Source of the DNA: a virus
Length of the DNA: 56,024 nucleotides
IMG/VR virus record: IMGVR_UViG_3300045988_135919
Location: 1 to 56,024 of that record
Direction: 5' to 3' (one strand)
Part shown: one piece after another, positions 2,651-56,015 of the stretch
How the letters are laid out: every line of letters starts with the position of its first letter
Position numbering within the stretch: position 1 is the stretch's first letter
The notes under the pieces: model-generated
Databases searched by the model: none
What the model was told of the DNA's origin: nothing
What the model saw: the letters and a program-made list of their open reading frames with translations, nothing else
Program-made: the position numbers and the translations under genes

Positions 2651-2981
2651 AACTTTAGAAGATTACTTTAATATTGAAGAGAAAAGTATAGAAGATATTA
2701 TGGACGATGAAGAAGAATGGGTTGAACCACCAATGAGAACCGAAGAAGAAATTGCTGAATACTTAAACGAAGCGTGTGATAAAGTATGGTATATGAGAAG
2801 TCATCCTTGTGATAATCCCGAAATAGAAAAAGGAAGATTAAAAGCAATTAAGAGAGTGGAAAAACAATACCCAGAAGTTAAAGATGGTTTTGATACTTGG
2901 GATTGTGGCTTTTGGAATGGTGTTTTAGGTACTCTTCGTTGGGTTTTAGGTAAAGAAGAAAAGGATATGTTAGATACATAA
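2637..2981 (+). CDS. Hypothetical acidic protein
   Basis: 114 aa. Co-oriented. TAATG junction with the next gene. Confidence 0.5.
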   Translation: MKKNKTLEDYFNIEEKSIEDIMDDEEEWVEPPMRTEEEIAEYLNEACDKVWYMRSHPCDNPEIEKGRLKAIKRVEKQYPEVKDGFDTWDCGFWNGVLGTLRWVLGKEEKDMLDT

Positions 2982-3622
2982 TGGACTTTCCTAGTTTTGA
3001 TGAATTGTTGGATATTAATTGTGATAATCCTAGATGGTATGAATTAGATAATTTACCAAACGAAGAGTGGAGAGATATTCAAGGTTATGAAGGATTATAT
3101 CAGGTTTCTAATTATGGAAGAGTTAAGAGTTTGGGAAGGATTTCCGGACGAAAAAGTAGGTGGGGAGGACAATACAATACAGTTGTAAAAGAGAAAATTA
3201 AAATTCCCTTTAAGAATAATAAAGGATATTGCATGATACATCTAAATAATAACGGAAAAGAATCTAATTTATTAATACATAGATTAGTTGGAGAAGCATT
3301 TATACCGAATCCTTATAATAACCCTGAAATTGACCATAAAAATGAGAATAAAAACGATAATAAAGTTAATAATTTAACATGGTGCACTAGACTTTATAAC
3401 AACACTAAAGGAGTTCAATCTAAAGATGGAAGAAGAAATTCTTCTCGGTTCAGAATGAGACCTGTTAAACAATATGACTTACAAGAAAAATTGCTAAATA
3501 TTTATGAAGGAATACGAATAGCAGAAGAAAAAACATTTGTTGATAATAGAAACATTGTTAAATGTTGCAAAGGTAAAGTAAAGACAGCAGGTGGTTTTAT
3601 TTGGAGATACGCTGATGAATGA
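2981..3622 (+). CDS. HNH homing endonuclease (NUMOD4-like N-terminus + HNH)
   Basis: WRDIQGYEGLYQVSNYGRVKSL (NUMOD4 pattern). IDHKNENKNDNKVNNLTW (HNH). Paralog of 7210-7866. Confidence 0.8.
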   Translation: MDFPSFDELLDINCDNPRWYELDNLPNEEWRDIQGYEGLYQVSNYGRVKSLGRISGRKSRWGGQYNTVVKEKIKIPFKNNKGYCMIHLNNNGKESNLLIHRLVGEAFIPNPYNNPEIDHKNENKNDNKVNNLTWCTRLYNNTKGVQSKDGRRNSSRFRMRPVKQYDLQEKLLNIYEGIRIAEEKTFVDNRNIVKCCKGKVKTAGGFIWRYADE

Positions 3623-6350
3623 TTTTGATAAATTAATCCAAGAACGACTTTGGGGATTCGATTTTGAAGTCACAATGTATGATTGGCTACTTGTATTAAT
3701 AAAATATTCAGATAAAACTAAAATAACTTTTCATAATGATATACCAGACAATGTTTACAAGTTTATATTTGATAATAATCCAATTTTAATAGGACATAAT
3801 GCACGTTATTATGACCAATACATATTAAAAGCAATACTATCTGGTTTTTCAGTGGGAGAAGTCAAGGAAGTCAATGACTATATTATTAATGGTGGTCAAG
3901 GGTTTGAATTACAATATGATAACGTACAAATCTCTCCGATATGGGATACCATACAAGATATTGTTCCTCCTAAAAGCTTGAAAGAAATTGAAGCTAATCT
4001 TTTAATGGATATTACAGAATCTACTGTTAGTTTTGATATAGACCATCCATGGAACGAGGAAGAATATAAAGAAATGCTTTACTACTGTACCAAAGATGTC
4101 GAGGCTTTATTTCCTTTATTTGAAGCAAGAAAAAGTTATTTTAAAACCAAATACGATTTGTGCATTTTATCAGGTATTGACACAACATATAATATGGGAT
4201 TAACAAATGCTAAATTATGTGCTAAATTCTTGGAAGCAGAAAAAATAGATAGAGATGATGAAAGAGAGTTTGTTATTCCAAAAACAATAGATTTAAATTA
4301 TGTTCCGAAAGAAATATTAAACTTTTTTGAGAGAGTACACGATAAAACAATTTCGGATGAAGAACTATTCACTAGTAAATTAGAATTTGACTTCCATGGT
4401 ATGCCATCTGTATTTGCGTCTGGTGGAGCCCATGGTGCATTACCAAACTACAGCTATGATGAAAAATTAACCCCCAATAAGGTGGTTATTAATGTTGATT
4501 ATTCAAGTCTTTATCCACATTTATTGGCTCTACCTGAGTATAATTTTATTTCTAGGAATATTAAAGATAAAAATAAATATTACGATACTCTTCAACGAAG
4601 ATTAAAATTAAAGCACGAGGGTAAAAAAGAAGAACAATTACCACTTAAGCTTATACTTAACACTACTTATGGTTGCCAGAACAATAAATATAATGATTTG
4701 TATGATCCCAAAGGAGCACGAAATACTTGTTGGACAGGTCAATTATTATTAGCGTCTATGACAGAAGAAGTGTTTCAAATTGGGGATGTAAAATTAATTC
4801 AAATAAACACAGATGGCTTAATGGTAGAACTACCGAGAGAAAAATTACCACAATATTATGATGTATGTAATAATTTTTCAAAAAGAGTTAAAATAGGAGT
4901 AGAATATGATATAATTCACAAAATAATACAACGTGATGTAAACAACTACATTTTACTATACGGAGATAACGAACATTTAAACGTTAAAGCAAAAGGTGGA
5001 TGTTTCGCAAGTTTACCAAAGTTAACTATCGAGAATGATGGTACCATTTCTAGTAAATATAAACCAGATTTTAAAGCCAACTCTTTGGCGATAGTTTCAG
5101 AAGCACTTGCAAAATATTTATTATTTGATATTCCTATTGAAGAAACAATATTAAATGAAAATATCATACACAAGTACCAACAGATCTCTCATCTCGGTTC
5201 AACCTATGAAAAATGTGTACAAGAAAGCCCGAATGGCGATATATTATTACAAAAGAATAACCGAGTGTATGCTGGACTAAAACCTAGTGGAAAAATAATA
5301 AAAGTTAAACCTGACGGAAGAAGAGATTCACTTGCTAACCAAGCACCTAATCCAATTATTGACAATGGAAACAAATGTACCATTGACCAAATTAATAAAC
5401 AGTGGTATATTAAACTTGCTACCCAATGGGCTAACGATTTCCTAGGTATTAAACGCCTAACTGAATATAAAAAAGAGGAACTATTAACTATGGCTAATGA
5501 TTTAGGTATGGTTGTGGATAAAAAAATAAAGAAAGATGACTTAATAAAGTTAATTGAAGAAAGAAATGAGGTAAAAAACATGGCTACTAAAAAAGTAGAA
5601 ACAAATGAAGAAGTAAAAACTATGACTATTTATGAAAAAATAGCAAAAATGACAAAAGAAATTAGAGAACACGATTTTATAATGGATTGTGCAAACCCTG
5701 GTAACCTTGGTGGAAAGGAATATGCGTCAATAGGTCAGTACTACAATCTATTACACAACTTATGCGACAAATATCGTTTATTATTTAAATGGAATGTTAT
5801 GGAATTAGAGTCCTTTGAAAAAGATGTATTTAAACCAACTGGAAAAATGCCATCTAACGTGGCAATAGTGAGTTGTACAGCAGATTTCATAGACCTCGAT
5901 GATACACAATTTAGTAGTATAACATATAGTGCTATGGCAGGTGGTAGTGATATTGCCGACAAATCAGTTAGTGGTGCTAGCACATTAGCATTTAGAAATT
6001 GGTTTGATAAAAATTTCACACCAAAATATATGAATACTATCGAAGAAGAAATAACAGAGTTATCTGAAGAAAAAACAGAAGCACCTAAGATACCTACATA
6101 TATTCCTACTGAAAGAAAAGAAGAAATAAAAAAAGAAGTAGTAGAAACAAAACAACATGAAGAATCTGATGACGAAGATATAAAAGAAGTTATCGGTAAA
6201 ATTATGAAAGTTAGAGAGTTAAGTGGAAACGATGAATGGGGTAAAGAAACATTAAAAGCACTTTATAGTGGCGAAGTTACTAGTGCTGATATTTTAGCAA
6301 TTAGTCTAAAAGTTGATACTAAATTAGAAAGTCTCGAGGTGACTGAATAA
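3615..6350 (+). CDS. DNA polymerase (3'-5' exo + family-B-like palm motifs) fused in frame to a HeH motif and an ERF-like annealing domain
   Basis: Exo motifs FDFEV, HNARYYDQY, YYCTKDVEAL. Polymerase motifs VDYSSLYPHL, KLILNTTYG, QINTDGL. HeH motif KEELLTMANDLGMVVDKKIKKDDLIKLI. ERF-like IYEKIAKMTKEI...KEYASIGQYYNLLHNLCDKY...VSGASTLAFRNWFDKNF. GGAG RBS sits 8 nt before ATG 3615. Confidence 0.8.
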   Translation: MNDFDKLIQERLWGFDFEVTMYDWLLVLIKYSDKTKITFHNDIPDNVYKFIFDNNPILIGHNARYYDQYILKAILSGFSVGEVKEVNDYIINGGQGFELQYDNVQISPIWDTIQDIVPPKSLKEIEANLLMDITESTVSFDIDHPWNEEEYKEMLYYCTKDVEALFPLFEARKSYFKTKYDLCILSGIDTTYNMGLTNAKLCAKFLEAEKIDRDDEREFVIPKTIDLNYVPKEILNFFERVHDKTISDEELFTSKLEFDFHGMPSVFASGGAHGALPNYSYDEKLTPNKVVINVDYSSLYPHLLALPEYNFISRNIKDKNKYYDTLQRRLKLKHEGKKEEQLPLKLILNTTYGCQNNKYNDLYDPKGARNTCWTGQLLLASMTEEVFQIGDVKLIQINTDGLMVELPREKLPQYYDVCNNFSKRVKIGVEYDIIHKIIQRDVNNYILLYGDNEHLNVKAKGGCFASLPKLTIENDGTISSKYKPDFKANSLAIVSEALAKYLLFDIPIEETILNENIIHKYQQISHLGSTYEKCVQESPNGDILLQKNNRVYAGLKPSGKIIKVKPDGRRDSLANQAPNPIIDNGNKCTIDQINKQWYIKLATQWANDFLGIKRLTEYKKEELLTMANDLGMVVDKKIKKDDLIKLIEERNEVKNMATKKVETNEEVKTMTIYEKIAKMTKEIREHDFIMDCANPGNLGGKEYASIGQYYNLLHNLCDKYRLLFKWNVMELESFEKDVFKPTGKMPSNVAIVSCTADFIDLDDTQFSSITYSAMAGGSDIADKSVSGASTLAFRNWFDKNFTPKYMNTIEEEITELSEEKTEAPKIPTYIPTERKEEIKKEVVETKQHEESDDEDIKEVIGKIMKVRELSGNDEWGKETLKALYSGEVTSADILAISLKVDTKLESLEVTE

Positions 6351-7210
6351 TGGGATGGTTAATTGGTGGAATTTTATTAACTATTATTTTAGCAATTTTT
6401 ATATGTATTGGAGAAAATTATAATAAAACTGATAAAATATACACACCTAAAGTTTTTCTAAGTCTATTCGGATTATTAATATGTTTATTTGGTTGTTTCA
6501 CAACAATTAAAACTGGTGAGATAGGTGTTAAGACTAGATTTGGTAAGATTGTAGGTTCGACAACTAATGAGGGTATCATATGGAAATCTCCCATTGATAA
6601 AGTTAATAAAATAAATATTAAAGTACAAAAGTATGAAAATGATAACCCATTAGATACTTCTACAAAAGATATGCAAATTGTTAACAATATAAAAGTTGCG
6701 ATTAACTACCAAATAGACGGAACGAAAGCTGTAGCTTTATATAAAACTGTTGGTAAAAAATATGAACAAATTGTACTTGAACCAGCTATTCAAGAAACTG
6801 TTAAAGGTGTTATATCAAAATACACATCGGAGGAGTTAGTAACGAAACGAAGTGAAATATCATTAGATATAAACACAACATTGAATGAAAAATTATCACA
6901 ATATGGTATTAAAAGTGTAGCAGTATCTATTAACAATTTTGATTTTAGTGAAGCATATAATCAAGCAATAGAGAAGAAAGCAGTTGCTGAACAAGAAGTT
7001 CAAACGTCAAAAAATCAATTAGAAAAAGCTAAAATAGATGCTGAAACAAAAAAGGTTAAAGCTCAAGGTGATGCCGAAGCCAATGACGTTGTAAATAAAA
7101 CATTAACAAAAGAGATTCTTATTGAAAAATGGATTGAAAAATGGAATGGATCCACACCAAAAGTAAGTGGTGGCAACAATATGATAGATATAAGTGAGTT
7201 GTTGAAATAA
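6350..7210 (+). CDS. SPFH/Band-7 (prohibitin/HflC-like) membrane protein
   Basis: N-terminal TM segments. GEIGVKTRFGKIVG...IWKSPIDKV...INIKVQ SPFH core, then a coiled-coil tail. TAATG coupling on both sides. Confidence 0.75.
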   Translation: MGWLIGGILLTIILAIFICIGENYNKTDKIYTPKVFLSLFGLLICLFGCFTTIKTGEIGVKTRFGKIVGSTTNEGIIWKSPIDKVNKINIKVQKYENDNPLDTSTKDMQIVNNIKVAINYQIDGTKAVALYKTVGKKYEQIVLEPAIQETVKGVISKYTSEELVTKRSEISLDINTTLNEKLSQYGIKSVAVSINNFDFSEAYNQAIEKKAVAEQEVQTSKNQLEKAKIDAETKKVKAQGDAEANDVVNKTLTKEILIEKWIEKWNGSTPKVSGGNNMIDISELLK

Positions 7211-7866
7211 TGAACTATGAATTTGTTGAACCAAATTCACCTAGATGGTTAAGCCTTGAAGATTTACCGAATGAAAGATGGAAGGATATTGAGGGTTATG
7301 AAGGATTATATCAAATATCTGATTATGGGAGAGTTAAAAGTTTGCGAAAAAAATATTATGGGGTACTGCGAACGAAAATTTCAAAACAAGGATATTGTTA
7401 TGTTGCCTTATCTAATAATAATATTCGGGAAGATTTTAGAATAAATAGATTAGTCGCTATTCATTTTTTAGGCAAATGTAAATATAAAAATCTTCAAGCA
7501 AATCATAACGATGAAAATAAACTAAATAATTATTACACAAACATAACTTGGATGACTCCTGCCGAAAATTGCAACTATGGAACACGCAATAAGCGTGTTG
7601 GTGAAAAACAACATATGCGAGTAAATCAATACGATTTGAATGGAAATTTCATAAAAACTTGGAATAGTTTGAGCGAAATAGGAAAAGTGTTAAATTTCTC
7701 AGTAAGTCACGTTAGTAGTTGTTGTAACGGTTATCGAAAAAGTGTAAACGGCTTTTTATGGAAATTATATGATGGTGATACAAAAAATATATCCCCATAT
7801 CAGCCAAAGACATTAAATCAATTTTCTATTAATTATAAGGAGGTAAAAAATGAATTGGAAGTATAG
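7210..7866 (+). CDS. HNH homing endonuclease (paralog of 2981-3622)
   Basis: WKDIEGYEGLYQISDYGRVKSL and ANHNDENKLNNYYTNITW. C-terminal HTH-like SEIGKVLNFSVSHVSSC. Confidence 0.8.
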   Translation: MNYEFVEPNSPRWLSLEDLPNERWKDIEGYEGLYQISDYGRVKSLRKKYYGVLRTKISKQGYCYVALSNNNIREDFRINRLVAIHFLGKCKYKNLQANHNDENKLNNYYTNITWMTPAENCNYGTRNKRVGEKQHMRVNQYDLNGNFIKTWNSLSEIGKVLNFSVSHVSSCCNGYRKSVNGFLWKLYDGDTKNISPYQPKTLNQFSINYKEVKNELEV

Positions 7867-8932
7867 TGAAGATAGAAAACATATAGAATTAGAACAACCA
7901 CCAAAGCAACATAAATTATTAACAGGAACTAGGTTTGCGAGTTGTTTGGGGTTGAATCCGTATTCCAGCCCTTTCCAAATTTGGTGCGAATGTACAAAAC
8001 TTGTTACACCACCATATGAAGAAACAATGTATACAAAAGCTGGAAAAATTATTGAAAAATTCCAAAGAGAATATGTTTCCAAGACGTTCCCAAATATAAA
8101 AGGACCAGAGGAATACTTTTCCAACGCTTACGAAATGTATAGATGGAATTTCTTCGATGAAAAATATAAACCATATGGAGGTTTATGGGATGCTGTTTCA
8201 ACTAAAAACAATGGAAAAGATATAGCAATGGTTGTTGAATTTAAAACAGCAAATTCAGCAGCGAAATGGGTGGACGGTCCACCAGTATATTACTTGATGC
8301 AAGGTGCATTATATGCAAAAATGTTAGGGCTAGATAAAGTGTTATTTGTAGCTAGTTTCTTATCACCTTTGGATTATGCACATCCGGAAGAATTTATTCC
8401 CAATGAAACCAATACAACAATGATAGTTAAAAGATTAAAAGATATTACTATAGAGTGTGATGGTGAGTATTTAAGTTTTGATGAATTATACCAAAAAGGA
8501 TTAGAGTTTTGGGATAAATATGTCAAAACCGGCATATCGCCAGAATTTGATGAAAAACTAGACAAAGAATACCTAGACATAATTCGTGCCTCTAAACCAA
8601 CTGAGGATAATGATTTAATTACCGTATGTTCAGAGGCTATTCAACTTGCTAAAGATATAAAGGAACTTGAAGTTTCTAGTGGATTAAAAGCTAAAAAAGA
8701 TGAATTAAAAGTTCTTGAAGCATGTATTAAAGATAAAATGATTAAAGATGAAATTTACTCTTGTAACAATTATACATTAAAACAAAGTACAAAAAAGGTG
8801 TTTAATGAAGAAATGTTTGCAAAAGAGAACGAAAAATTATATAATAAGTATGTAGAGGACAAAACATCCTATACTTTAAATAAAAATATTAAGGAGGAAA
8901 AAATCGATGGAAAAAATGAAAGTTGTAATTAA
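7850..8932 (+). CDS. YqaJ/lambda-Exo-like PD-(D/E)xK exonuclease with coiled-coil C-terminal extension
   Basis: LLTGTRFASCLGLNPYSSPFQIWCE (YqaJ N-motif). D..VVEFKT (D/ExK). YYLMQGALYAKML. AAGGAGG RBS. Confidence 0.7.
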   Translation: MNWKYSEDRKHIELEQPPKQHKLLTGTRFASCLGLNPYSSPFQIWCECTKLVTPPYEETMYTKAGKIIEKFQREYVSKTFPNIKGPEEYFSNAYEMYRWNFFDEKYKPYGGLWDAVSTKNNGKDIAMVVEFKTANSAAKWVDGPPVYYLMQGALYAKMLGLDKVLFVASFLSPLDYAHPEEFIPNETNTTMIVKRLKDITIECDGEYLSFDELYQKGLEFWDKYVKTGISPEFDEKLDKEYLDIIRASKPTEDNDLITVCSEAIQLAKDIKELEVSSGLKAKKDELKVLEACIKDKMIKDEIYSCNNYTLKQSTKKVFNEEMFAKENEKLYNKYVEDKTSYTLNKNIKEEKIDGKNESCN

Positions 8933-9122
8933 AGGAAAGTATAACGAACGTACTAATCGTAGCGATTTTGATGTTAGTATGAAGGGACCTGCAAACGTAA
9001 TTGCAAATGGACTAGCAACTACTTTATGTAGCGTTTGTATTGATGGTGACTGTTCATGTGCACAACTTGTTAAGATTATTAAACAAACATATGCACAATG
9101 TGTTGAAAAAGGAGAGGAATAA
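8907..9122 (+). CDS. Hypothetical small Cys-containing protein
   Basis: 71 aa. AAGGAGG RBS. Confidence 0.5.
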   Translation: MEKMKVVIKGKYNERTNRSDFDVSMKGPANVIANGLATTLCSVCIDGDCSCAQLVKIIKQTYAQCVEKGEE

Positions 9123-9124
9123 TA

Positions 9125-9568
9125 ATGAAAATTTTATTTAATTTAGAGCAATATACTCCTGTAGATGCAGGAGAAAGAGTATTAGTTATAAAGGATGCGA
9201 AATGTGTTCCAAGTGGAAAACCAACTAAGATTGAACTTATATTTGAAGATATTAAAACAAAAAGAACATTAAAGAGTAGTTATAGTTTTTCTACAGAAGG
9301 AGCTATGAGAGCGTTTGGTTTCTTATGCAGAACAGCATTAAATGTTCCAGATATGGGAGAATTTGATACCAATACTGATACACAAAAATTAATTGGTGTT
9401 AAATTAGTATGTGAGGTAGTACATACCGAAGGTACACAACCAAGAGAAGATGGTACATTCCCAATATTTGCAAACATCAGCAAGGTATTAAGTAGATATG
9501 AAGAAGGTTATGAGGCATCTACTGCGGCAAGCCCTAGAAATTCTATTCCAACTGGCGACTTAGACTAA
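9125..9568 (+). CDS. Putative ssDNA-binding accessory protein (DUF669-like)
   Basis: 147 aa. The sequence pattern resembles DUF669 proteins that accompany ERF/RecT modules. Acidic C-terminus GDLD. Last gene before terminator 9586-9610. Confidence 0.4.
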   Translation: MKILFNLEQYTPVDAGERVLVIKDAKCVPSGKPTKIELIFEDIKTKRTLKSSYSFSTEGAMRAFGFLCRTALNVPDMGEFDTNTDTQKLIGVKLVCEVVHTEGTQPREDGTFPIFANISKVLSRYEEGYEASTAASPRNSIPTGDLD

Positions 9569-9585
9569 TATATTACTAACAAATC

Positions 9586-9610
9586 ACACACGAGAAATCG
9601 TGTGTTTTTT
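9586..9610 (+). terminator. Rho-independent terminator
   Basis: ACACACG-agaaat-CGTGTGT followed by T6. Confidence 0.8.
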
Positions 9611-9668
9611 CGTATAATTAAGTTAGAAAAAGATATAAAACGGTACACTTTCTTTTTCCAATGGAGAT

Positions 9669-9908
9669 GTGATATATATGAATGAAGATTATGAAAATGT
9701 AAAAAGTTATCTACTTCGTTCTATTTATAGCATCTCTATTTTTAATTGTAAAAAATTAGATATTACGGACAAAGAACTTTTAAGTCTTGTTAATAATCTA
9801 GTTAAGTATATAACAGATAAATGGGAGGATGATGTGGAATGTATAATCCATACAACAATCAATATTACGGACAACCTATTGGACAACCAAGATACACACA
9901 ACCAATAG
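9669..9908 (+). CDS. Hypothetical protein (weak call)
   Basis: 79 aa with a GTG/ATG start. Its 70-nt 3' overlap with the better-supported 9839 ORF lowers confidence. Confidence 0.3.
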   Translation: MIYMNEDYENVKSYLLRSIYSISIFNCKKLDITDKELLSLVNNLVKYITDKWEDDVECIIHTTINITDNLLDNQDTHNQ

Positions 9909-32997: not shown

Positions 32998-33183
32998 ATG
33001 GCTCTCTTTATTAAATTCAATTTCTTTTTTGCAGTTTTTACACCACAAATATATCTTTTTATATTCGCTGGTTTTGTCCACTCGAAACATTTTTTTATTA
33101 CAATGTGGACATACCATATATACTTTTTCATCTTGTATTATATCATATTTTTGTTCGTTTGTCAAATTATCAACCCCCATCAA
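32986..33183 (-). CDS. Mu Com-like zinc-ribbon protein
   Basis: 65 aa. CPHCNKKMF...(17)...WCKNCKKEIEF, a CxxC...CxxC spacing like the Com translational regulator family. Confidence 0.55.
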   Translation of the reverse strand: MMGVDNLTNEQKYDIIQDEKVYMVCPHCNKKMFRVDKTSEYKKIYLWCKNCKKEIEFNKESHEPM

Positions 33184-34925
33184 AAACCTAGTTTCGTTAT
33201 TGAGAACTTACTACTTGCCACACCAACGCCTCCTGGGGATAAAATATTGATTATCATAGAAGCAACACTATCAATACAATCATCCTTTTGAGTTTTCTGA
33301 ACACTACCTTCTGCTTCCGACCATTCGTAAATGTGCCTCATAAACAAATTGTATTGTGTGTTATTTTCACGGCATGATTCGGCTTTAAAATAGATTCTAA
33401 CAGTCATTTCGTTAATCGCAATACCTTTTATCTCACTTTGACAAGAAAGTATCCTATCACGCTTAGATTTAGTTGTAGGAGCATTATGCGTTGTAATATT
33501 TATTCTATAATTGAGTTTTCTAGCGTCATTTGATAAAAGTTCGCCATATTCTAACCCACCGTTGTTTTTTTCAATACCAAGTTTTGTTACCTTATGCTTG
33601 ATTAATTTTTCTAACAATCTTTTTCTCGATATATCTATATCAACATTATTTTCGTAATAAACATCTTCTATATAAATATCGTTTCCATATTGATACCCAA
33701 TAGGTGTTGAAAAATAATCTTTGCCACCAAATGACGGATCTGCAAATGCAATAATCCTATCGGGCTCTTGCTCTGGTAAATCAGTATAAAATGATAAATG
33801 GTCCTTGGTGAAAGGATGTCCTGTTCTCTCCATTGGCTCTCCCAAATATTTAGCACGAAATGTTATAGGATCTTCTGTTTTTTGAAGTTCTTGATAATAT
33901 TCTTTCGTAAATCCCTTACCATAATCATACAAAAAGTTTGATTCCCCTTTTTCATCATAACAAGGTATGTTTATAATTCTAACACGAGGATTATGCGTAC
34001 CATCGTATATTCTAATTAATCTACCGATAGGATCATTTATTGACCATCTTGTTGCAATGTGTATCTCTGGGCAACGATGATATTCTCCATCTTTTCCTTT
34101 ACGCATTACAGTTCTATCCTGAATTGTACTTGTATATGTTGCAAATAATTTGTCAAGCCTAGCTGGATTTTCGGCAGTTTCAATATCTTTGATTAAGTCA
34201 TCACAATAAAGTATATTACTTGCCTCTGCAATACCAGTTGTACCACCATCGATACTTTTGAACATTAGTGTATGAAAACGTTTATCCGTATTCAAATCTA
34301 TCCATGAATATTCCGCAGATTTATTCTTTATATTAATATTTGGAAATATTTCACTAAAACGATATTCTTCGCTTGTCATTAAATTCAAAACTTCATTATA
34401 AAATGATTGTGTTAATGCTGTACTATGACCATTACCGAGTATAGAACGGTCTGGATAAAGTGCAGCCATAAAAGATAAAAAGAATATACCTGTGGTACTC
34501 TTCGCAGTACGAGGTGGCATTGACACAAACAAGAAGTCTAATTTACCATCCGCAACATCTTGCATCGCTTGCAATAATCCATGTTTCTCGAGTATTTTTC
34601 TACGAGGTAAGAAGAATTGTTTTTCGATAGGTCTATTCCATTCCAAAGCGATACAATATGCCCTAAAGTCACCACACCTAGCCCTAGTATCATAACTAGC
34701 AAGTAAATATTCTTGTTCTTTATTATAACCAAGTTTGCTATTGAGTACAAAACTTTCAATCTCTTTACAAATTTTAATAGCATTTTCTTCTTGCTCGGCA
34801 CTTTCGTAATTAATTCTCATCAAATTTAAAAGGTCTAAATAAGCGGCACTATTCCTGTCTTTTACTTGGGAGTATAAATCTTCTAACTCCTCAATATTTT
34901 TCAATATTCGGTTTTTATTGTTCAT
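33180..34925 (-). CDS. terL: Terminase large subunit
   Basis: 581 aa. Walker A-like MPPRTAKST, Walker B LYCDDLI. C-terminal nuclease region AFADPSFGGKDYF...D. Confidence 0.9.
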   Translation of the reverse strand: MNNKNRILKNIEELEDLYSQVKDRNSAAYLDLLNLMRINYESAEQEENAIKICKEIESFVLNSKLGYNKEQEYLLASYDTRARCGDFRAYCIALEWNRPIEKQFFLPRRKILEKHGLLQAMQDVADGKLDFLFVSMPPRTAKSTTGIFFLSFMAALYPDRSILGNGHSTALTQSFYNEVLNLMTSEEYRFSEIFPNINIKNKSAEYSWIDLNTDKRFHTLMFKSIDGGTTGIAEASNILYCDDLIKDIETAENPARLDKLFATYTSTIQDRTVMRKGKDGEYHRCPEIHIATRWSINDPIGRLIRIYDGTHNPRVRIINIPCYDEKGESNFLYDYGKGFTKEYYQELQKTEDPITFRAKYLGEPMERTGHPFTKDHLSFYTDLPEQEPDRIIAFADPSFGGKDYFSTPIGYQYGNDIYIEDVYYENNVDIDISRKRLLEKLIKHKVTKLGIEKNNGGLEYGELLSNDARKLNYRINITTHNAPTTKSKRDRILSCQSEIKGIAINEMTVRIYFKAESCRENNTQYNLFMRHIYEWSEAEGSVQKTQKDDCIDSVASMIINILSPGGVGVASSKFSITKLGF

Positions 34926-35379: not shown

Positions 35380-35455
35380 TGGAGGTAACGGTGGGATTCG
35401 AACCCACGATAACGGAGTTGCAGTCCGTTTTCTTGAACCACTTGAGTACGTTACC
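35380..35455 (-). tRNA. tRNA-Cys (GCA), CCA encoded
   Basis: GGTAACG/CGTTACC acceptor stem. ACGGA-CTGCAAC-TCCGT anticodon arm. GTGGG-TTCGAAT-CCCAC T arm. U73 discriminator (a CysRS identity element). The D stem is weak. Confidence 0.85.
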
Positions 35456-36432
35456 ATAAAACAAAAATGTGTACCAATACCTACAAATTAGAAAGGAGGT
35501 GATTTGGTACACGCACAAAATAAAATGAAAAACATCGAATTGGGAGTAGGTCCACAACGCCCTACATATAAATTACACATAATGACTAACGAACATTCAT
35601 ATTACATAAAAAAGGAAGCCTTGTAATAAATATTTAAATTATGTGTATTACTGGAAGTGGATAGTCCCCCTAAGGTCTGACCTTTCACAGTTTTCCCAAT
35701 AATTTTGTTCTTTAAAAAAATTATAAGCGGTGCTTCTCGCACTAATATAATATGAACATTTATTATTCAGCCACTAGGAAGTGTTGGTCCTGAGAGGGAG
35801 CTACCGTCTTTCCTCCAACACCTTTTGATCCTACGTAAGAGTGATACTTGCAACTTTCACACGAATTAGACTTTAATACTTTCATTCGCTAACCAGGCGA
35901 TAATTAAATATGTAGATTTGTGCTACTCATACGAAGGACTAATCTTATACCTTTCTCACGAAAGTTCAACTACATACTCACTTATTTTGATATTACAACT
36001 CCTCTTGGGTTATCAAGCCCATAAGTTCTATTGCCTTATTCCGAACATGGATGCAAACCACCCATGCCATTTCAGATTGTGTAAGCGACTAGCCTTCTGC
36101 TTTACAAACTCTCATACCATACCACCATTATCTCTTTTCATGCTTTGCATGTTCCATTCTCCAGTTTCCCTTCAAATCACTCAATCCATCTATCGTATCC
36201 GACAAACTAATAAGTACAAGATAATGTCCATACTGTGTTTCGCACAGTCTTTCATATGGTTCGCTTATAAACTTCTTAAAAAATAAAATTGTGATGCACT
36301 AAGATATTGTTATTTGAGAGAATAATCAAGAAAGTTGTTATCCAACTTAGGATTATTCCGGATGAATATTTTTTTACGAGTGTGATACTCCTATCACTAC
36401 AATTTCTCTTTTTAAGAAATATTATCTCAATG
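35456..36432 (-). ncRNA. ORF-free, hairpin-dense ~1-kb RNA upstream of the tRNA (large structured ncRNA candidate, ROOL/GOLLD-like context)
   Basis: No minus-strand ORF >=60 aa. Own promoter and terminator. G+C-richer core around 35640-36290. Many local helices, e.g. CUUUC-GUGA-GAAAG at 35951-64. Confidence 0.5.
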
Positions 36433-45269: not shown

Positions 45270-45289
45270 TTAATTAGATGTTTATAACT
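45253..45289 (+). promoter_or_regulatory. Bipartite motif copy D: TTTCGGTG-N21-TTATAACT
   Basis: Read directly. Followed by TGaTATAAT at 45309-45317, upstream of the helicase gene. Confidence 0.6.
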
Positions 45290-45336
45290 TGATTATAATT
45301 TTCAATATTGATATAATAAAAAAAAGGAATGATATT

Positions 45337-46767
45337 ATGGAGATACAAATAAGCAATGTTATTAGAATTAAAAATCCTAGTGATAAAATTTTAGAACATT
45401 TTAAAAAGAAATTGACATATACTAACCCAGCATATAGCCGTCTTAAAAATATGGGTTATAGTGTTTATAAAGTACCAAAAGAATTAAAATTATATAACAT
45501 ATGGGAAGATAGCTTATATATACCTGTTGGTTGTTTTGAGGACTTGTATAGTTTACATCCTGTTACTACTGATTATATTGATTATTGTATAAATAAACCC
45601 ATTAATATTGAGAGTAATATTAAATTAAGAGATTATCAACAACCTTGTGTTGATGCTGTAAGAGATTATTGTAATGTAATTCTTTCCATGGGCTGTGGTA
45701 TGGGTAAGACGCTTTCTTGCTTGGGTGCAATTGGTGAAATAAAGCAACGTACATTATGGTTAGCTGGTACAATAGACTTAGTAAAACAGGCTGAAAGTAG
45801 TTGTAAGAAATTTATGAAGTGTAAAACAAGTTTTATAACCGAGGGTAAGATGAATTTAGAGGGAGATATTGTGTTTGCTACAGTACAATCAGTTTATAAA
45901 TTTATTCAAAATGGAGAACTAAAACAAGATGAGTTTGGTTGTATTGTACTAGATGAGTGTCAACATTTATCAGCTAACCCTAAGTCACTTCAAATATTTA
46001 GAACTGTGTTTGAGTATTTTCCGGCAAAATATCGTGTAGGTTTATCGGCAACTGTATGGAGAACAGACGGATTAGAAAAAGCCATTGTTGATATTATTGG
46101 TTCGATTAAATATAATATAGTTCAAAAAGGACAAGAATATTCTTGTATGTATGATAACAAATGTTTAATGAAATTTCCTATAGATAAATTCCAAGTACCA
46201 TGCCATATTAAAGTTATTGAAACAGGGTATGATTTAGAAGATAAAGCGGTGTTTATGGCAAATGGTGGTACAATAAATTTTGCAGCACTTGTCAGTGATA
46301 TTGCAAATAATAACAAACGAAATAAAATGATATTGAAAGATTTAAAGAAAATGAACGGTAGTACGATAGTACTTAGTGATAGAATTGGTCAATTAGAATA
46401 TTTCCGTGATAATTTAAATGATGCGGTACTTATAACTGGAGATACCCCTAAAAAACTAAGAGAACAAGGTTTAAATGAAGTTAGAGAAGGTAAGAAAAAA
46501 TATTTATTAGCGAGTTATGCGTTAGCCCGTGAGGGGCTTGACGCACCCATACTATCAAATTTAGTTTTAGCTACCCCTATTAAAGCTTTCTCTAGTGTTG
46601 TACAATCAATTGGTCGTATTCAACGTCCATACGATGGAAAATCAATCGCATATGTTTATGACTATGTTGATAACGTAGGTATGCTATTTAACTTTTATAG
46701 TAAACGCAGAGCAATTTATCGTAAGAATGGTTGGGTTATTGATAATATGTACTTAGGTAGTAAATAA
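45337..46767 (+). CDS. Superfamily-2 DEAD/DEAH-type helicase
   Basis: Motif I GCGMGKT, motif II LDECQH, motif III SAT, motif VI QSIGRIQR. ATG 45337 follows an AAGGAA RBS. Confidence 0.8.
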   Translation: MEIQISNVIRIKNPSDKILEHFKKKLTYTNPAYSRLKNMGYSVYKVPKELKLYNIWEDSLYIPVGCFEDLYSLHPVTTDYIDYCINKPINIESNIKLRDYQQPCVDAVRDYCNVILSMGCGMGKTLSCLGAIGEIKQRTLWLAGTIDLVKQAESSCKKFMKCKTSFITEGKMNLEGDIVFATVQSVYKFIQNGELKQDEFGCIVLDECQHLSANPKSLQIFRTVFEYFPAKYRVGLSATVWRTDGLEKAIVDIIGSIKYNIVQKGQEYSCMYDNKCLMKFPIDKFQVPCHIKVIETGYDLEDKAVFMANGGTINFAALVSDIANNNKRNKMILKDLKKMNGSTIVLSDRIGQLEYFRDNLNDAVLITGDTPKKLREQGLNEVREGKKKYLLASYALAREGLDAPILSNLVLATPIKAFSSVVQSIGRIQRPYDGKSIAYVYDYVDNVGMLFNFYSKRRAIYRKNGWVIDNMYLGSK

Positions 46768-51306: not shown

Positions 51307-51555
51307 ATGGTGTACCGTTTCTTGTACAAGTTTCCTAATGATGCTAATAAACTTATTGATGGCAGATACATTAGTTTTGTCCAAAATGAGGTAAACATTC
51401 ATCGTGGGAAACTTTTTCATGTTTTTAACCGAGAACAACTATGTTGTTATGCTGAGGCAAAACGTCTTGTAGATAGATTTCAACCTGGAAAAAGTGTTTA
51501 TGACTTTTTCGATGAACTTTCTAATGAGGAGGTTACAGCATGGAGAAAGAAATAA
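51307..51555 (+). CDS. Hypothetical protein
   Basis: 82 aa. GAGGAG RBS. Confidence 0.55.
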   Translation: MVYRFLYKFPNDANKLIDGRYISFVQNEVNIHRGKLFHVFNREQLCCYAEAKRLVDRFQPGKSVYDFFDELSNEEVTAWRKK

Positions 51556-53000
51556 GCGATTTAACTAAAGAGGAATTATTAAATCCAGCCTTTATTCCAA
51601 GCATATTTGAAGGGTACACAGATGAAAATGAAAGACAAAATATTTTAATTGAAGTACTTGAAGTTGCGAAAGAACAAAGGGTGCTGGGTAAAGTTAAAAA
51701 TGCAATATCGAAGTGCACTCATGAAGTTAAAGTTGTTAATAACACTTTAAATGCTATTCTTGTACTTACACCACAAGGCAATCCAGAAGTGTCTACTGAA
51801 AATTTTGTTACTGTTATGGAAACCGATGAAAGAATTAAAAATTTATTTTATTACGATGAGTTTATACAACAACCAATAAATACTAAAACACACACATGGT
51901 GGAGTGATAACGATGATAAAGAATTAAGATGCTTTATTGAAAAAGAATATGGTATTTATAATTCAAACAAATATTATGATGCTTTTGGTAAAATATTGAT
52001 GAAACGAAAAGTACATCCTATTAAAAATATAATCGAAAGTGAAAAATGGGATGGTGTTCCCAGAATAGATAAATTTTTAATAAATATTATGGGTTGTGAT
52101 GACGATGATTATTCAAGAGAAGTATCACGTATGATATTTTATGGTGGTATTAATAGGTTGTATAATCCGGGATGTAAATTTGATTATATGCCAATATTAA
52201 TTGGTAAACAAGGAACAGCAAAAAGTTCATTAATTAGTTGGTTAGCACTTAAAGATGATTATTATAAAGAGATAAATACCATTGAAGGTAAAGACGGTAT
52301 GGAAATACTTGATGGAGCGTGGATTTGTGAAATGGCTGAACTTTTAGCTATGGTTCGTAGTAAAGAAGTCGAATCGATGAAATCTTATTTATCAAGATGT
52401 AGTGATAAATTCCGTAAGTCATATGATAGACGTACAAGTATTAACCCTAGAACATGTATTTTTATTGGAACAACAAACAGTTATAACTTTTTAACAGACC
52501 AAAGTGGTAACAGAAGATATTTACCAATTGAAGTACATTCCGACGGTCCTACAATATACGCTTACAAAGAAGAAATACAAACATGTATTTTGCAATGTTG
52601 GCGAGAAGCTTTGTACCTAATGACTAACGGAAAAACATATTTGTCAATACCCACTAAATATTTAAAAACGTTACAAGACAAACAACAAGAATACAAGATG
52701 GAAGATCCAATGACAAATGACGTAATAAATTATTTAGATACATTAGAAGTTGGGGATAAAGTTTGTATTAAAGATATTTGGGTAAAAGCTAGAAAACAAC
52801 CACAATTCACATTAAGTCGTGCTTATAGTGATAAAATATGTAGTATCATCAATAGTCTTAATGATTGGAAAAAAATAAGTTCAATGCGACATAAAGAATA
52901 TGGTGTCCAAAAAGGTTGGGTTAAAATTGAACCAGCAATTGATGAGAACTTAAACGATCCAATATTAAGTTTTAGTAAAAATTATAATGATTTAGATTAG
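51540..53000 (+). CDS. VirE/VapE-family P-loop NTPase (phage primase-helicase type)
   Basis: 486 aa. WDGVPRID...PGCKFDYMPILIGKQGTAKSS (Walker A)...WICEMAEL...FRKSYDRR...FIGTTN..FLTDQSGNRRYLPIEV. Confidence 0.8.
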   Translation: MEKEISDLTKEELLNPAFIPSIFEGYTDENERQNILIEVLEVAKEQRVLGKVKNAISKCTHEVKVVNNTLNAILVLTPQGNPEVSTENFVTVMETDERIKNLFYYDEFIQQPINTKTHTWWSDNDDKELRCFIEKEYGIYNSNKYYDAFGKILMKRKVHPIKNIIESEKWDGVPRIDKFLINIMGCDDDDYSREVSRMIFYGGINRLYNPGCKFDYMPILIGKQGTAKSSLISWLALKDDYYKEINTIEGKDGMEILDGAWICEMAELLAMVRSKEVESMKSYLSRCSDKFRKSYDRRTSINPRTCIFIGTTNSYNFLTDQSGNRRYLPIEVHSDGPTIYAYKEEIQTCILQCWREALYLMTNGKTYLSIPTKYLKTLQDKQQEYKMEDPMTNDVINYLDTLEVGDKVCIKDIWVKARKQPQFTLSRAYSDKICSIINSLNDWKKISSMRHKEYGVQKGWVKIEPAIDENLNDPILSFSKNYNDLD

Positions 53001-54958: not shown

Positions 54959-55222
54959 ATGAGAACAATACCTAGATGGAATAGACTACTACATAAATAT
55001 GTAGACGTTAGAATACCAGATGATTGGTATGTATCCACTTTTGAAAAAGATATGAGTAAAATTGTAAATTGTGCAAATTGTGGTAAGGAAATAACATTTG
55101 GTGGCGGTTATACGTCACAAGAGTATCATGAAAAGAGTTTTGGTTTTGGTTATACTGTTTGCGAGAAATGTTCCGAAGAAGAAACAAAAAGAAGGTTAGC
55201 ATATTATGATAAGTCAGAATAA
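54959..55222 (+). CDS. Zinc-ribbon protein
   Basis: 87 aa. CANCGK...CEKCSEE. Confidence 0.5.
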   Translation: MRTIPRWNRLLHKYVDVRIPDDWYVSTFEKDMSKIVNCANCGKEITFGGGYTSQEYHEKSFGFGYTVCEKCSEEETKRRLAYYDKSE

Positions 55223-56015
55223 ATGGGATACATTAGTAAAGTTATATATCAACCGTGGATTAAAAATATTTCCAGTTGTTGCAAATGGTAAAACACCAGC
55301 CATACAAATGTGGCAAAAAGATTGTTCTAGTGACAGTCTGCAAGTTCTTTATTGGCTTGAAAATAATAAAAATGGTAATTGGGGATTACCAGCAACGCCA
55401 AATAATCTGTTTATCATTGACCTAGATGTCCATGATATAGATAAAAATGGTATAAAATTTTTTGAGAAATTATGTTGTGACATAGATTTAAAAGGTGAAC
55501 AATTTGATACCCTAATTCAAACAACGCCGAGCGGTGGAAAACATTTGATATATAAGAGCGACGAAGATCTGAGTGCGATAGCAAATGGTTCAAATGTATT
55601 CAAAGACTATCCGGGAATTGATTTTCGTACTGATGGATATATTGTTGTAGAACCATCTATCATTAATAACAAAGAATACAGGTTTTTTAACAATATAGAA
55701 CCACAAGCGATGCCACAAAAATTAAAAGATTATATTTTAAACAATGCTGAACGAAAGGGTAAAGAAAAAAAACCCTACGTTAAACCTAAAGAAACAGTTT
55801 TAACTGGGAATAGAGATGACCAATTGTTTGCATACATTACAAATCTATACTATAAAACAAGATTAGATATTGATGAAGTTTCGATATTAGCTCACAATTT
55901 TAACAAAACAATGCTAGATGATCCTTTACCTGATAAAGATGTTGAGTATAAAGTTAGAAAAGCCTTTCAAAAAGATAGAGCTAAATGTTTATTTATCATA
56001 TTACCAGATGAATAA
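55206..56015 (+). CDS. Bifunctional primase-polymerase (AEP/PrimPol N-terminal domain) protein
   Basis: 269 aa. IFPVVANGKTPAIQMWQ...LFIIDLDVHD...TPSGGKHLIY...GIDFRTDGYIVVEPS. Confidence 0.7.
   Translation: MISQNKWDTLVKLYINRGLKIFPVVANGKTPAIQMWQKDCSSDSLQVLYWLENNKNGNWGLPATPNNLFIIDLDVHDIDKNGIKFFEKLCCDIDLKGEQFDTLIQTTPSGGKHLIYKSDEDLSAIANGSNVFKDYPGIDFRTDGYIVVEPSIINNKEYRFFNNIEPQAMPQKLKDYILNNAERKGKEKKPYVKPKETVLTGNRDDQLFAYITNLYYKTRLDIDEVSILAHNFNKTMLDDPLPDKDVEYKVRKAFQKDRAKCLFIILPDE

Follow-up and report, generated by a model that had tools for sequence, protein, structure and literature searches.

What is a DNA polymerase doing in the same reading frame as a recombination annealase? The question is raised by a locus in a 56,024-nucleotide stretch of DNA from an uncultured gut phage (IMG/VR virus record IMGVR_UViG_3300045988_135919, positions 1 to 56,024; hereafter the window), in which an open reading frame (ORF) of 911 codons runs without a stop on the plus strand, from an ATG at 3615 to a TAA at 6348–6350 (stop-to-stop span 3582–6350). 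The ORF is preceded by a GGAG, and its predicted product of ~105 kDa has three parts: a family-B DNA polymerase (PolB; residues 1 to ~610), a two-helix, HeH-like motif (residues ~611–655) and an ERF-like single-strand annealing protein (SSAP; residues 656–911). An earlier note, made from the sequence alone, had pointed to this frame and to the lack of a stop between its parts, and the ORF reads out as claimed there.

We consider the best explanation to be a conserved PolB-HeH-SSAP fusion gene that would give rise to two products, the fusion itself and a free SSAP, and would couple the annealing of DNA strands to their extension. For this explanation as a whole we estimate a probability of about 60%. 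The domains are known; the architecture and its breadth are new. A literature search turned up no account of a polymerase fused to an ERF or other SSAP protein, the domain-architecture tables of Iyer et al. 2002 lying outside its coverage.

A polymerase, a HeH-like motif and a predicted annealase in one frame

The N-terminal part opens with a 3'-5' proofreading exonuclease domain (3615–4469) carrying the motifs Exo I (FDFEV), Exo II (HNARYYDQY) and Exo III (YYCTKDVEAL), and continues with the palm, fingers and thumb of a family-B polymerase (4470–5444), marked by motif A (DYSSLYPH), motif B (KLILNTTYG) and motif C (NTDG). These motifs had been recognized in the earlier note, and they hold up in an alignment of eight sequences (the window, four metagenomic and three cultured-phage homologues; alignment A2). 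All six are present, and their key residues are invariant: D16 and E18 of Exo I; N62, Y66 and D67 of Exo II; Y157 and D161 of Exo III; D295, S298, Y300 and P301 of motif A; K345, N349 and G353 of motif B; and N398-T399-D400 of motif C.

The polymerase part also falls into family B by profile. Residues 6–614 match phrog_1252 ('DNA polymerase') with an E-value of 3.7e-115, and are ~30% identical over ~97% of their length to annotated polymerases of Enterococcus, Paenibacillus, Bacillus, Staphylococcus and Eggerthella phages. When the profile of alignment A2 was compared with PDB it gave 82 matches, and all 60 of those listed were PolB structures matched across motifs A–C, the best being Pol alpha (3.6e-7) and E. 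coli Pol II (3.5e-6), followed by zeta, epsilon and RB69. Single sequences reach less far: the Pfam DNA_pol_B match is sub-threshold (E-value 0.052), and a phmmer search of either half of the fusion against PDB sequences gave no match, so that PolB structures were reached only by the polymerase family profile. On this sequence evidence we identify residues 1 to ~610 as a divergent family-B polymerase with a proofreading exonuclease. The PolB-like phrog_1252 polymerases of siphophages of Firmicutes and Actinobacteria (Efquatrovirus, Wanderervirus, EL753P1) share with it ~30% identity over ~600 amino acids and the same motifs, but they are ~560–665 amino acids long and end after the thumb.

In the fusion the thumb is followed by a segment (5445–5579, plus strand) that resembles the HeH, Rho-N and SAP two-helix motifs, as the earlier note had proposed. 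The HeH-like C-terminal end of phrog_3281 matches residues 614–651 (E-value 0.0019), and AlphaFold2 (AF2) predicts two confident helices in the segment (model residues 2–11 and 22–41; predicted local distance difference test score, pLDDT, 84–87). Among 33 relatives there are weak matches of this segment to Rho_N in six (best 0.002) and to HeH in two (best 0.0047); the segment of the window itself has no match to either Pfam family (PF12949 HeH, PF07498 Rho_N). The HeH assignment is plausible, though not proven.

The remaining 256 residues are predicted to fold as an annealase. An AF2 model built on an alignment of 33 family members (alignment A1) has a mean pLDDT of 77, which rises to ~90 in a core encoded by 5628–6017 (model residues 54–183). 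This core is composed of two helices (54–67 and 88–101), three strands (104–121, 129–142 and 150–161) and a further helix (166–183), and thus contains the beta-beta-beta-alpha arrangement of Rad52. Beyond it lie a KEE-rich charged linker of low confidence (6042–6164; model residues 192–232, pLDDT <50), predicted to be disordered, and a C-terminal domain of three helices (6168–6341; model residues 234–291, pLDDT 81–87). The latter is conserved across alignment A1 and may bind partner proteins, judging from the C-terminal domains that other SSAPs have.

The predicted fold bears out the suggestion that the C-terminal part is ERF-like, and profile matches in the family point the same way. Foldseek returned ERF (essential recombination function) proteins as its top matches in BFVD (E-values 2e-8 to 1e-6, probability 1.0) and the N-terminal domain of human RAD52 as its top matches in PDB (probability 0.99–1.0). 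In profile searches the window segment from Met656 alone matches phrog_155 ('Erf-like ssDNA annealing protein', E-value 1.6e-4), as do 18 of the 33 relatives (best 2.6e-8), and three of the 33 match Pfam ERF (best 1.8e-4, below the gathering threshold). Judging from these profiles and from the predicted fold, we take residues 656–911 to be an SSAP of the ERF/Rad52 fold and a distant member of the ERF superfamily. With P22 Erf and other ERF SSAPs (PF04404, phrog_155) it has in common the Rad52-like alpha-alpha-beta-beta-beta-alpha core, an aromatic-rich helix followed by G-(A/S)-(S/T)-x-x-(Y/A)-x-R-(K/N)-(Y/W), a disordered linker leading to a C-terminal helical domain, and a co-encoded 5'-3' exonuclease. 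It differs from them in being very divergent, below Pfam detection, and in sitting covalently on the C-terminus of a polymerase.

Fused, split and unfused relatives

Is the joined frame a property of this one assembly, or of a family? We gathered 43 related loci from IMG/VR, ENA, Logan and JGI, of which 32 are fused, nine are split by an HNH endonuclease insertion and two are cut by the end of the contig. Each of the 30 IMG/VR loci encodes the SSAP in one stop-free frame with the polymerase part that precedes it. From the HeH motif to the SSAP core the linker measures ~20 to ~90 residues, with coiled-coil-like inserts in some clades, and is never interrupted by a stop in the fused loci, in genomes of ~30% GC. 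An error near 5575 that hides a stop codon, which the earlier note had named as a possible refutation, or an indel there has nothing in its favour beyond its prior possibility. Since the fused frame recurs in 32 loci whose samples and assemblers are independent (IMG/VR, ENA, Logan), with 36–74% SSAP identity to the window and with differing linkers, a sequencing or assembly artefact is for all practical purposes excluded. The frame at 3615–6350 is a genuine gene conserved in evolution.

The architecture extends beyond these loci. An exhaustive hidden Markov model (HMM) search of 1.84 billion cluster representatives gave 548 matches, and an SSAP-only HMM matched the C-termini of at least 15 further polymerase representatives of 839–996 amino acids (library-scaled E-values, up to ~1e-3). 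A distant 864-amino-acid polymerase, P0124, has a domain that is matched by Pfam ERF itself (40.2 bits, gathering threshold 25) and is 37% identical to the free-standing Erf of C. difficile phages. Within the 50,697 deposited phage genomes, the ERF homologues of this P0124-type fused form all stand under annotations as free-standing genes. Neither megablast with window positions 3000–7000 nor tblastn with the C-terminal 293 amino acids found a match in the same genomes, and the nearest relatives of the fusion gene are metagenomic only.

All nine split loci with upstream sequence have the same cause of separation: an HNH endonuclease of ~220 amino acids sits in the linker, its frame continuous with that of the polymerase-HeH part before it. 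A stop codon ends this ORF, and a new strong Shine-Dalgarno (SD)-ATG follows for the SSAP. The endonuclease belongs to the phrog_374 family (E-value 1e-57). We mapped insertions at 2710–3375 in L001, 6326–6973 in L035, 6406–6927 in L037, 6337–6963 in L040 and 6340–6957 in L042 (our locus numbers), and there are at least two to three insertion points, one after ...NEE(V/T)K, one after ...IEERN and a third type. Members of this family are also found at sites inside the polymerase gene and elsewhere in the genomes of split loci, and the intact linker may be a homing site of the enzyme. Searching with the C-terminal part as query gave protein clusters of which about half are free-standing proteins of ~250 amino acids; one apparently free-standing SSAP, P0049 (starting MATKQ...), turned out to be truncated by a contig end and is uninformative.

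In a neighbour-joining tree of the SSAP domain the deep branches are all fused, with the split forms nested inside groups of fused ones. As an HNH gene is present in all nine split loci and these lie inside fused clades, we conclude that the fusion is ancestral in this large clade of uncultured gut phages, with genomes of ~55–60 kb, and that the split by homing endonucleases is derived and recurrent. The recurrence of split lineages in independent assemblies argues for a covalent link that confers an advantage without being essential. We also considered group I introns as the vehicle of the insertions and rejected them: Rfam detected none in four split loci (L001, L035, L037, L040) or in two fused ones whose polymerase gene is interrupted (L005, L013), with an additional scan at permissive E-values for L001 and L037. 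For these four split loci it is thus improbable that splicing rebuilds the fusion.

Phage genes split by free-standing homing endonucleases are familiar from the nrdA gene and gene 43 of T4-like phages. The situation here is alike in that HNH ORFs break the polymerase gene and the polymerase-SSAP linker of the relatives, with no group I intron detected in the loci scanned; it is different in that the endonuclease is in frame with the upstream polymerase-HeH part, and that the downstream SSAP gains a new SD-ATG.

An unfused arrangement is found in the cultured Eggerthella phage EL753P1 (L045; OP172808.1, 28031–32446), where a polymerase, an SSAP, a RecE-like exonuclease and a 166-amino-acid protein are encoded by adjacent genes. 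Its polymerase (phrog_1252, 665 amino acids) has no HeH motif, and its 274-amino-acid protein, which matches the SSAP core profile, is preceded by a TGA stop, an SD and an ATG. All four genes are annotated 'hypothetical protein' in the deposited record, which leaves room for a better annotation. None of the three cultured phrog_1252 relatives examined carries a fused SSAP: in EL753P1 the SSAP is the next gene, while in LincolnB and a Staphylococcus phage other genes follow the polymerase. The gene order of EL753P1 is plausibly the unfused synteny that gave rise to the fusion.

The polymerase gene has a history of interruption of its own. In most relatives it consists of two or three ORFs, with breaks near residues 282–289 and 347–353 that are due either to HNH endonuclease genes of ~1 kb or to short frame-changing gaps of 30–90 nt. 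The first of these positions is the boundary between exonuclease and polymerase, and in many relatives the exonuclease is a separate ORF. The gene is broken in L001, L003, L005–L010, L013, L016, L023, L024, L040, L042 and L050, and uninterrupted in the window, L011, L018, L026, L027, L033 and L034.

The fusion gene is also mosaic. The polymerase of L011 is 88% identical to that of the window and its SSAP 73%; in L005 the polymerase is ~45% identical, the HeH motif 82% and the SSAP 74%. Conservation is much higher in the final ~110 residues of the polymerase and in the HeH motif than elsewhere (window compared with L011, L005, L006 and L035), which suggests recombination breakpoints within the gene.

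The putative internal start at 5580

If the SSAP is part of the polymerase, is it also made on its own? At the boundary between the HeH motif and the SSAP the earlier note had seen a GAGG placed 8 nt before an in-frame ATG, and had concluded that both a fusion and a free annealase could be made. The site is as described: GAGG at 5568–5571 is followed by 8 nt (TAAAAAAC) and then by the ATG at 5580–5582, which encodes Met656 and is the putative start of a free SSAP of 256 amino acids. The SD-like GAGGT (5568–5572) lies within the codons for N-E-V. In the genes of the window only 11 of 197 internal in-frame ATGs (5.6%) have a GAGG or GGAG core 4–10 nt upstream, as against 25 of 46 gene starts (54%), and among the 18 internal ATGs of the fusion ORF the one at 5580 is alone in having such a core.

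The site is also conserved at the level of codons. Alignment A1 shows conservation of the junction Met to at least 90%, and in all 15 distinct junctions of the form N-E-(V/I)-x-x-M the Glu codon is GAG, which places GAGGT 7–8 nt before the ATG; in the same ORFs GAG makes up 15% of Glu codons (267 of 1743). Two junctions with Ile in place of Val lose the GAGGT, and in these the preceding Arg codon has changed from AGA to AGG, making AAGGAA. Most other junction types have AAGGA or GGAG followed by ATG or GTG. A conserved in-frame start with a correctly spaced SD is thus present in the family, though not universally (L009 and L027 have none that is evident). In the split loci L001 and L035 the endonuclease ORF starts directly after the first 13 SSAP codons (MATKKVETNEE(V/T)K), in keeping with an endonuclease that shares the initiation site of the SSAP. 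Taken at the level of sequence, the preservation of the SD among synonymous codons lends real but indirect support to both products being made: it is good indirect evidence, not proof, that a free SSAP is translated besides the fusion.

A precedent exists in gene 4 of phage T7, where a long product (4A) and a shorter one from an internal in-frame SD-ATG (4B) can co-assemble in one oligomer; the two share the helicase and differ by the zinc-finger primase part. The nested, in-frame long and short products would be alike in the two systems, dual expression in the window being what we infer from the conserved start. They would differ in what the long form adds, which here is a whole polymerase joined to an annealase.

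Directly before the ATG lies an in-phase heptamer of the slippery X_XXY_YYZ type (A_AAA_AAC, 5573–5579), and this raises another way to separate proteins, namely a -1 frameshift after which the polymerase would end a few codons later, or else proteolysis in the linker. The heptamer is not kept among relatives, which have GTA AAA GAA (L005, L006, L011), GTA ATG TGT (L003) or AAA ATT (L023) in its place, and there is no known protease signal. We have rejected the frameshift on the grounds that its heptamer is not conserved; the heptamer is probably incidental, and separation by recoding or processing as a whole is barely credible.

Could the fusion be of no consequence at all? A stop codon lost between two translationally coupled neighbours might have been tolerated thanks to a flexible linker, with essentially all of the working SSAP coming from the internal start. 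The conservation of the SD-ATG would fit such neutrality, and so would a linker highly variable in length and sequence, frequent uncoupling insertions of homing endonucleases in multiple independent assemblies, and a cultured relative in which polymerase and SSAP are separate genes. At 30% GC, however, an unselected read-through would soon acquire stops or frameshifts, whereas all deep branches keep the frame over ~20–90 codons. The architecture moreover reaches representatives that the SSAP-only profile detects weakly (E-values up to ~1e-3), and in L009 and L027, for want of an evident internal start, the SSAP would be made only as part of the fusion. We regard a neutral fusion as rather unlikely.

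Operon partners, proposed mechanism and genome setting

With what does the fused annealase work? Downstream of the fusion gene, on the same strand, is the gene of a YqaJ/RecE-like 5'-3' exonuclease (7850–8932), the usual partner of an SSAP. It is matched by Pfam YqaJ (E-value 3e-5; 24.7 bits, gathering threshold 22) and by phrog_434 (2.5e-28), in agreement with the earlier note, and it is paired with the SSAP in the same operon here as well as in relatives and in EL753P1. After an ORF of 71 amino acids there follows a gene (9125–9568, plus strand) for a protein of 147 amino acids with an acidic C-terminal tail, for which a DUF669-like identity had been proposed. The sequence from the window is itself unmatched; nine of 30 relatives match Pfam DUF669 (PF05037; best 2.7e-5), and the AF2 model (pLDDT 84) has DUF669 and single-stranded DNA-binding (SSB) proteins as its top Foldseek matches (E-value ~1e-6). 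Through its relatives and its predicted fold, the protein is placed among the DUF669-type, SSB-like OB-fold proteins. DUF669 has been demonstrated to be an SSB in phage HK620 (PMC5928155).

Scanning positions 2800–9700 of the plus strand, we found no terminator inside this gene cluster, the first terminator-like hairpin with a T-run being at 9586–9605; polymerase, annealase, exonuclease and SSB hence form one operon. There was no sign of an internal promoter, sigma-70-like matches not being enriched over shuffled sequences (30 against 37.7 ± 6.4).

This operon bears on the idea that the ERF-fold domain is no recombinase at all, having been co-opted as an accessory of the polymerase for binding single-stranded DNA (ssDNA), for processivity or for template handling, so that only the fusion matters. 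The fold is that of a generic ssDNA-binding oligomer, its sequence is very divergent from canonical ERF and unmatched by Pfam in the window, and the absence of an internal start from two fused relatives would fit. Such a co-option is nevertheless hard to reconcile with the canonical SSAP partner, a RecE/YqaJ-like exonuclease, lying nearby in the window and in all relatives examined, with free-standing SSAPs in the split lineages and in the Eggerthella phage, with a separate SSB-like protein being already encoded, and with the conserved SD-ATG. We consider it quite improbable.

The preferred reading, a two-product fusion gene for coupled annealing and extension, can be put as follows. The fusion would have arisen from adjacent polymerase, SSAP and exonuclease genes when the stop codon of the polymerase was lost, the original SSAP start (GAGGT-N7-ATG, 5568–5582) being retained inside the fused frame. 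Two products would most likely be made, the polymerase-SSAP fusion of 105 kDa and, nested in frame and more abundant, a free SSAP of 30 kDa. The exonuclease would resect DNA ends; the SSAP, mostly in its free form and together with the DUF669 SSB, would anneal the exposed 3' strand to complementary ssDNA; and, within a mixed SSAP oligomer, the polymerase covalently tethered to one or a few of the subunits would extend the annealed 3' end. Coupling annealing to synthesis in this manner would lead to recombination-dependent replication and the formation of concatemers.

In its most specific form this proposal holds that fusion and free SSAP assemble into mixed ERF rings that deliver the replicative polymerase to just-annealed 3' ends, as a dedicated anneal-and-extend machine, and that homing endonucleases, exploiting the internal start, would then land preferentially in the flexible linker. 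This form we offer tentatively, as a somewhat doubtful possibility; if true, it would be a natural covalent replicase-recombinase of a kind not described for any virus or cell.

Several points weigh against the preferred reading. In the polymerase, motif C is NTD rather than the canonical DTD throughout the clade. In the annealase, the phrog_155 match of the window is weak and is lost once the HeH motif is included, the C-terminal segment of the window has no Pfam match, and comparing the SSAP family alignment by hhalign with P22 Erf or with the ERF domain of P0124, each a single sequence, gave nothing significant, which is likely due to a low-diversity profile that also carries polymerase columns and to the use of single-sequence targets. 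Because the comparison with P22 Erf was not significant, our ERF assignment rests on PHROG, Pfam and Foldseek and not on hand alignment. Of the resemblance to P22 Erf drawn in the earlier note, the quoted strings do exist in that protein and the motif pattern is common to both; the profile comparison did not bear it out. At the internal start, the 15 junctions are phylogenetically related, so that a count of 15 in 15 overstates their independence, and a clear SD-ATG is missing from two fused relatives. Split lineages are common, accounting for about half of the clusters, and their presence in multiple independent assemblies means that the covalent tether is dispensable at least in them. Finally, a 75-kDa N-terminal appendage on every subunit of a ring may be sterically awkward, and it is for this reason that mixed oligomers were postulated.

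Annealing at resected ends coupled to extension by a B-family polymerase, as proposed here, has parallels elsewhere. The E9 polymerase of vaccinia virus carries out single-strand-annealing recombination that depends on its own exonuclease, and eukaryotic break-induced replication depends on RAD52 and POLD3, with RAD52 and Pol delta as separate proteins. We know of no covalent polymerase–Rad52-fold fusion in either system. The hand-over of annealed 3' ends from SSAPs to polymerases has been inferred mostly from genetics (lambda Red at forks, phage recombination-dependent replication, RAD52-dependent break-induced replication). A conserved fusion of PolB with an ERF/Rad52-fold protein is 'Rosetta-stone' evidence for polymerase and annealase as a physical unit, and offers a natural system for studying how recombination and replication are coupled. 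Sister lineages split by a homing endonuclease and an unfused cultured relative serve as natural controls, so that the coupling can be tested directly in vitro. For recombineering, the fusion suggests polymerase-SSAP designs, and it brings functional annotation to gut phages of humans and animals that belong to an abundant, uncharacterised clade, in which the replication genes now carry the label 'hypothetical'.

Other genes of the cluster overlap their neighbours closely. The ATG of the fusion ORF overlaps the 3' end of an HNH/NUMOD4 homing endonuclease gene (2981–3622, plus strand; Pfam NUMOD4 1e-13, HNH_3 2e-8), and its stop overlaps the ATG of an SPFH/Band_7 membrane protein gene (TAATG; 6350–7210, plus strand; Pfam Band_7 2e-33). 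The Band_7 protein has a hydrophobic N-terminal segment; its gene stands between SSAP and exonuclease, and is found at the same position in L003, L037, L042 and L050. Next comes a second gene for an HNH/NUMOD homing endonuclease (7210–7866, plus strand). The two endonuclease genes are HNH/NUMOD4/NUMOD1 paralogues that flank the polymerase-SSAP/Band_7 block, each overlapping the start or stop of its neighbour.

The phage encodes a replisome of its own, comprising, besides the polymerase fusion, a Prim-Pol at the 3' end of the window (55206–56015), two helicases (45289–46767 and 51540–53000) and an Hjc-like resolvase at the 5' end (468–851). As the replication module wraps round the ends of the window and relatives are contigs of 54–62 kb, the window is probably a complete, circularly permuted phage genome of ~56 kb. 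The large terminase (TerL) gene is on the minus strand (33180–34925). Clostridium phage Maintenon, a relative on the basis of TerL, has only structural genes in common with the window; it is temperate, encodes RecT and DnaB and has no polymerase, and is uninformative on the fusion. Between the terminase region and the early genes, the minus strand carries a full-length ROOL RNA (35711–36283; it scores 200 bits with RF03087 of Rfam, gathering threshold 99, over model positions 1–574) adjoined by a tRNA gene (35383–35455).

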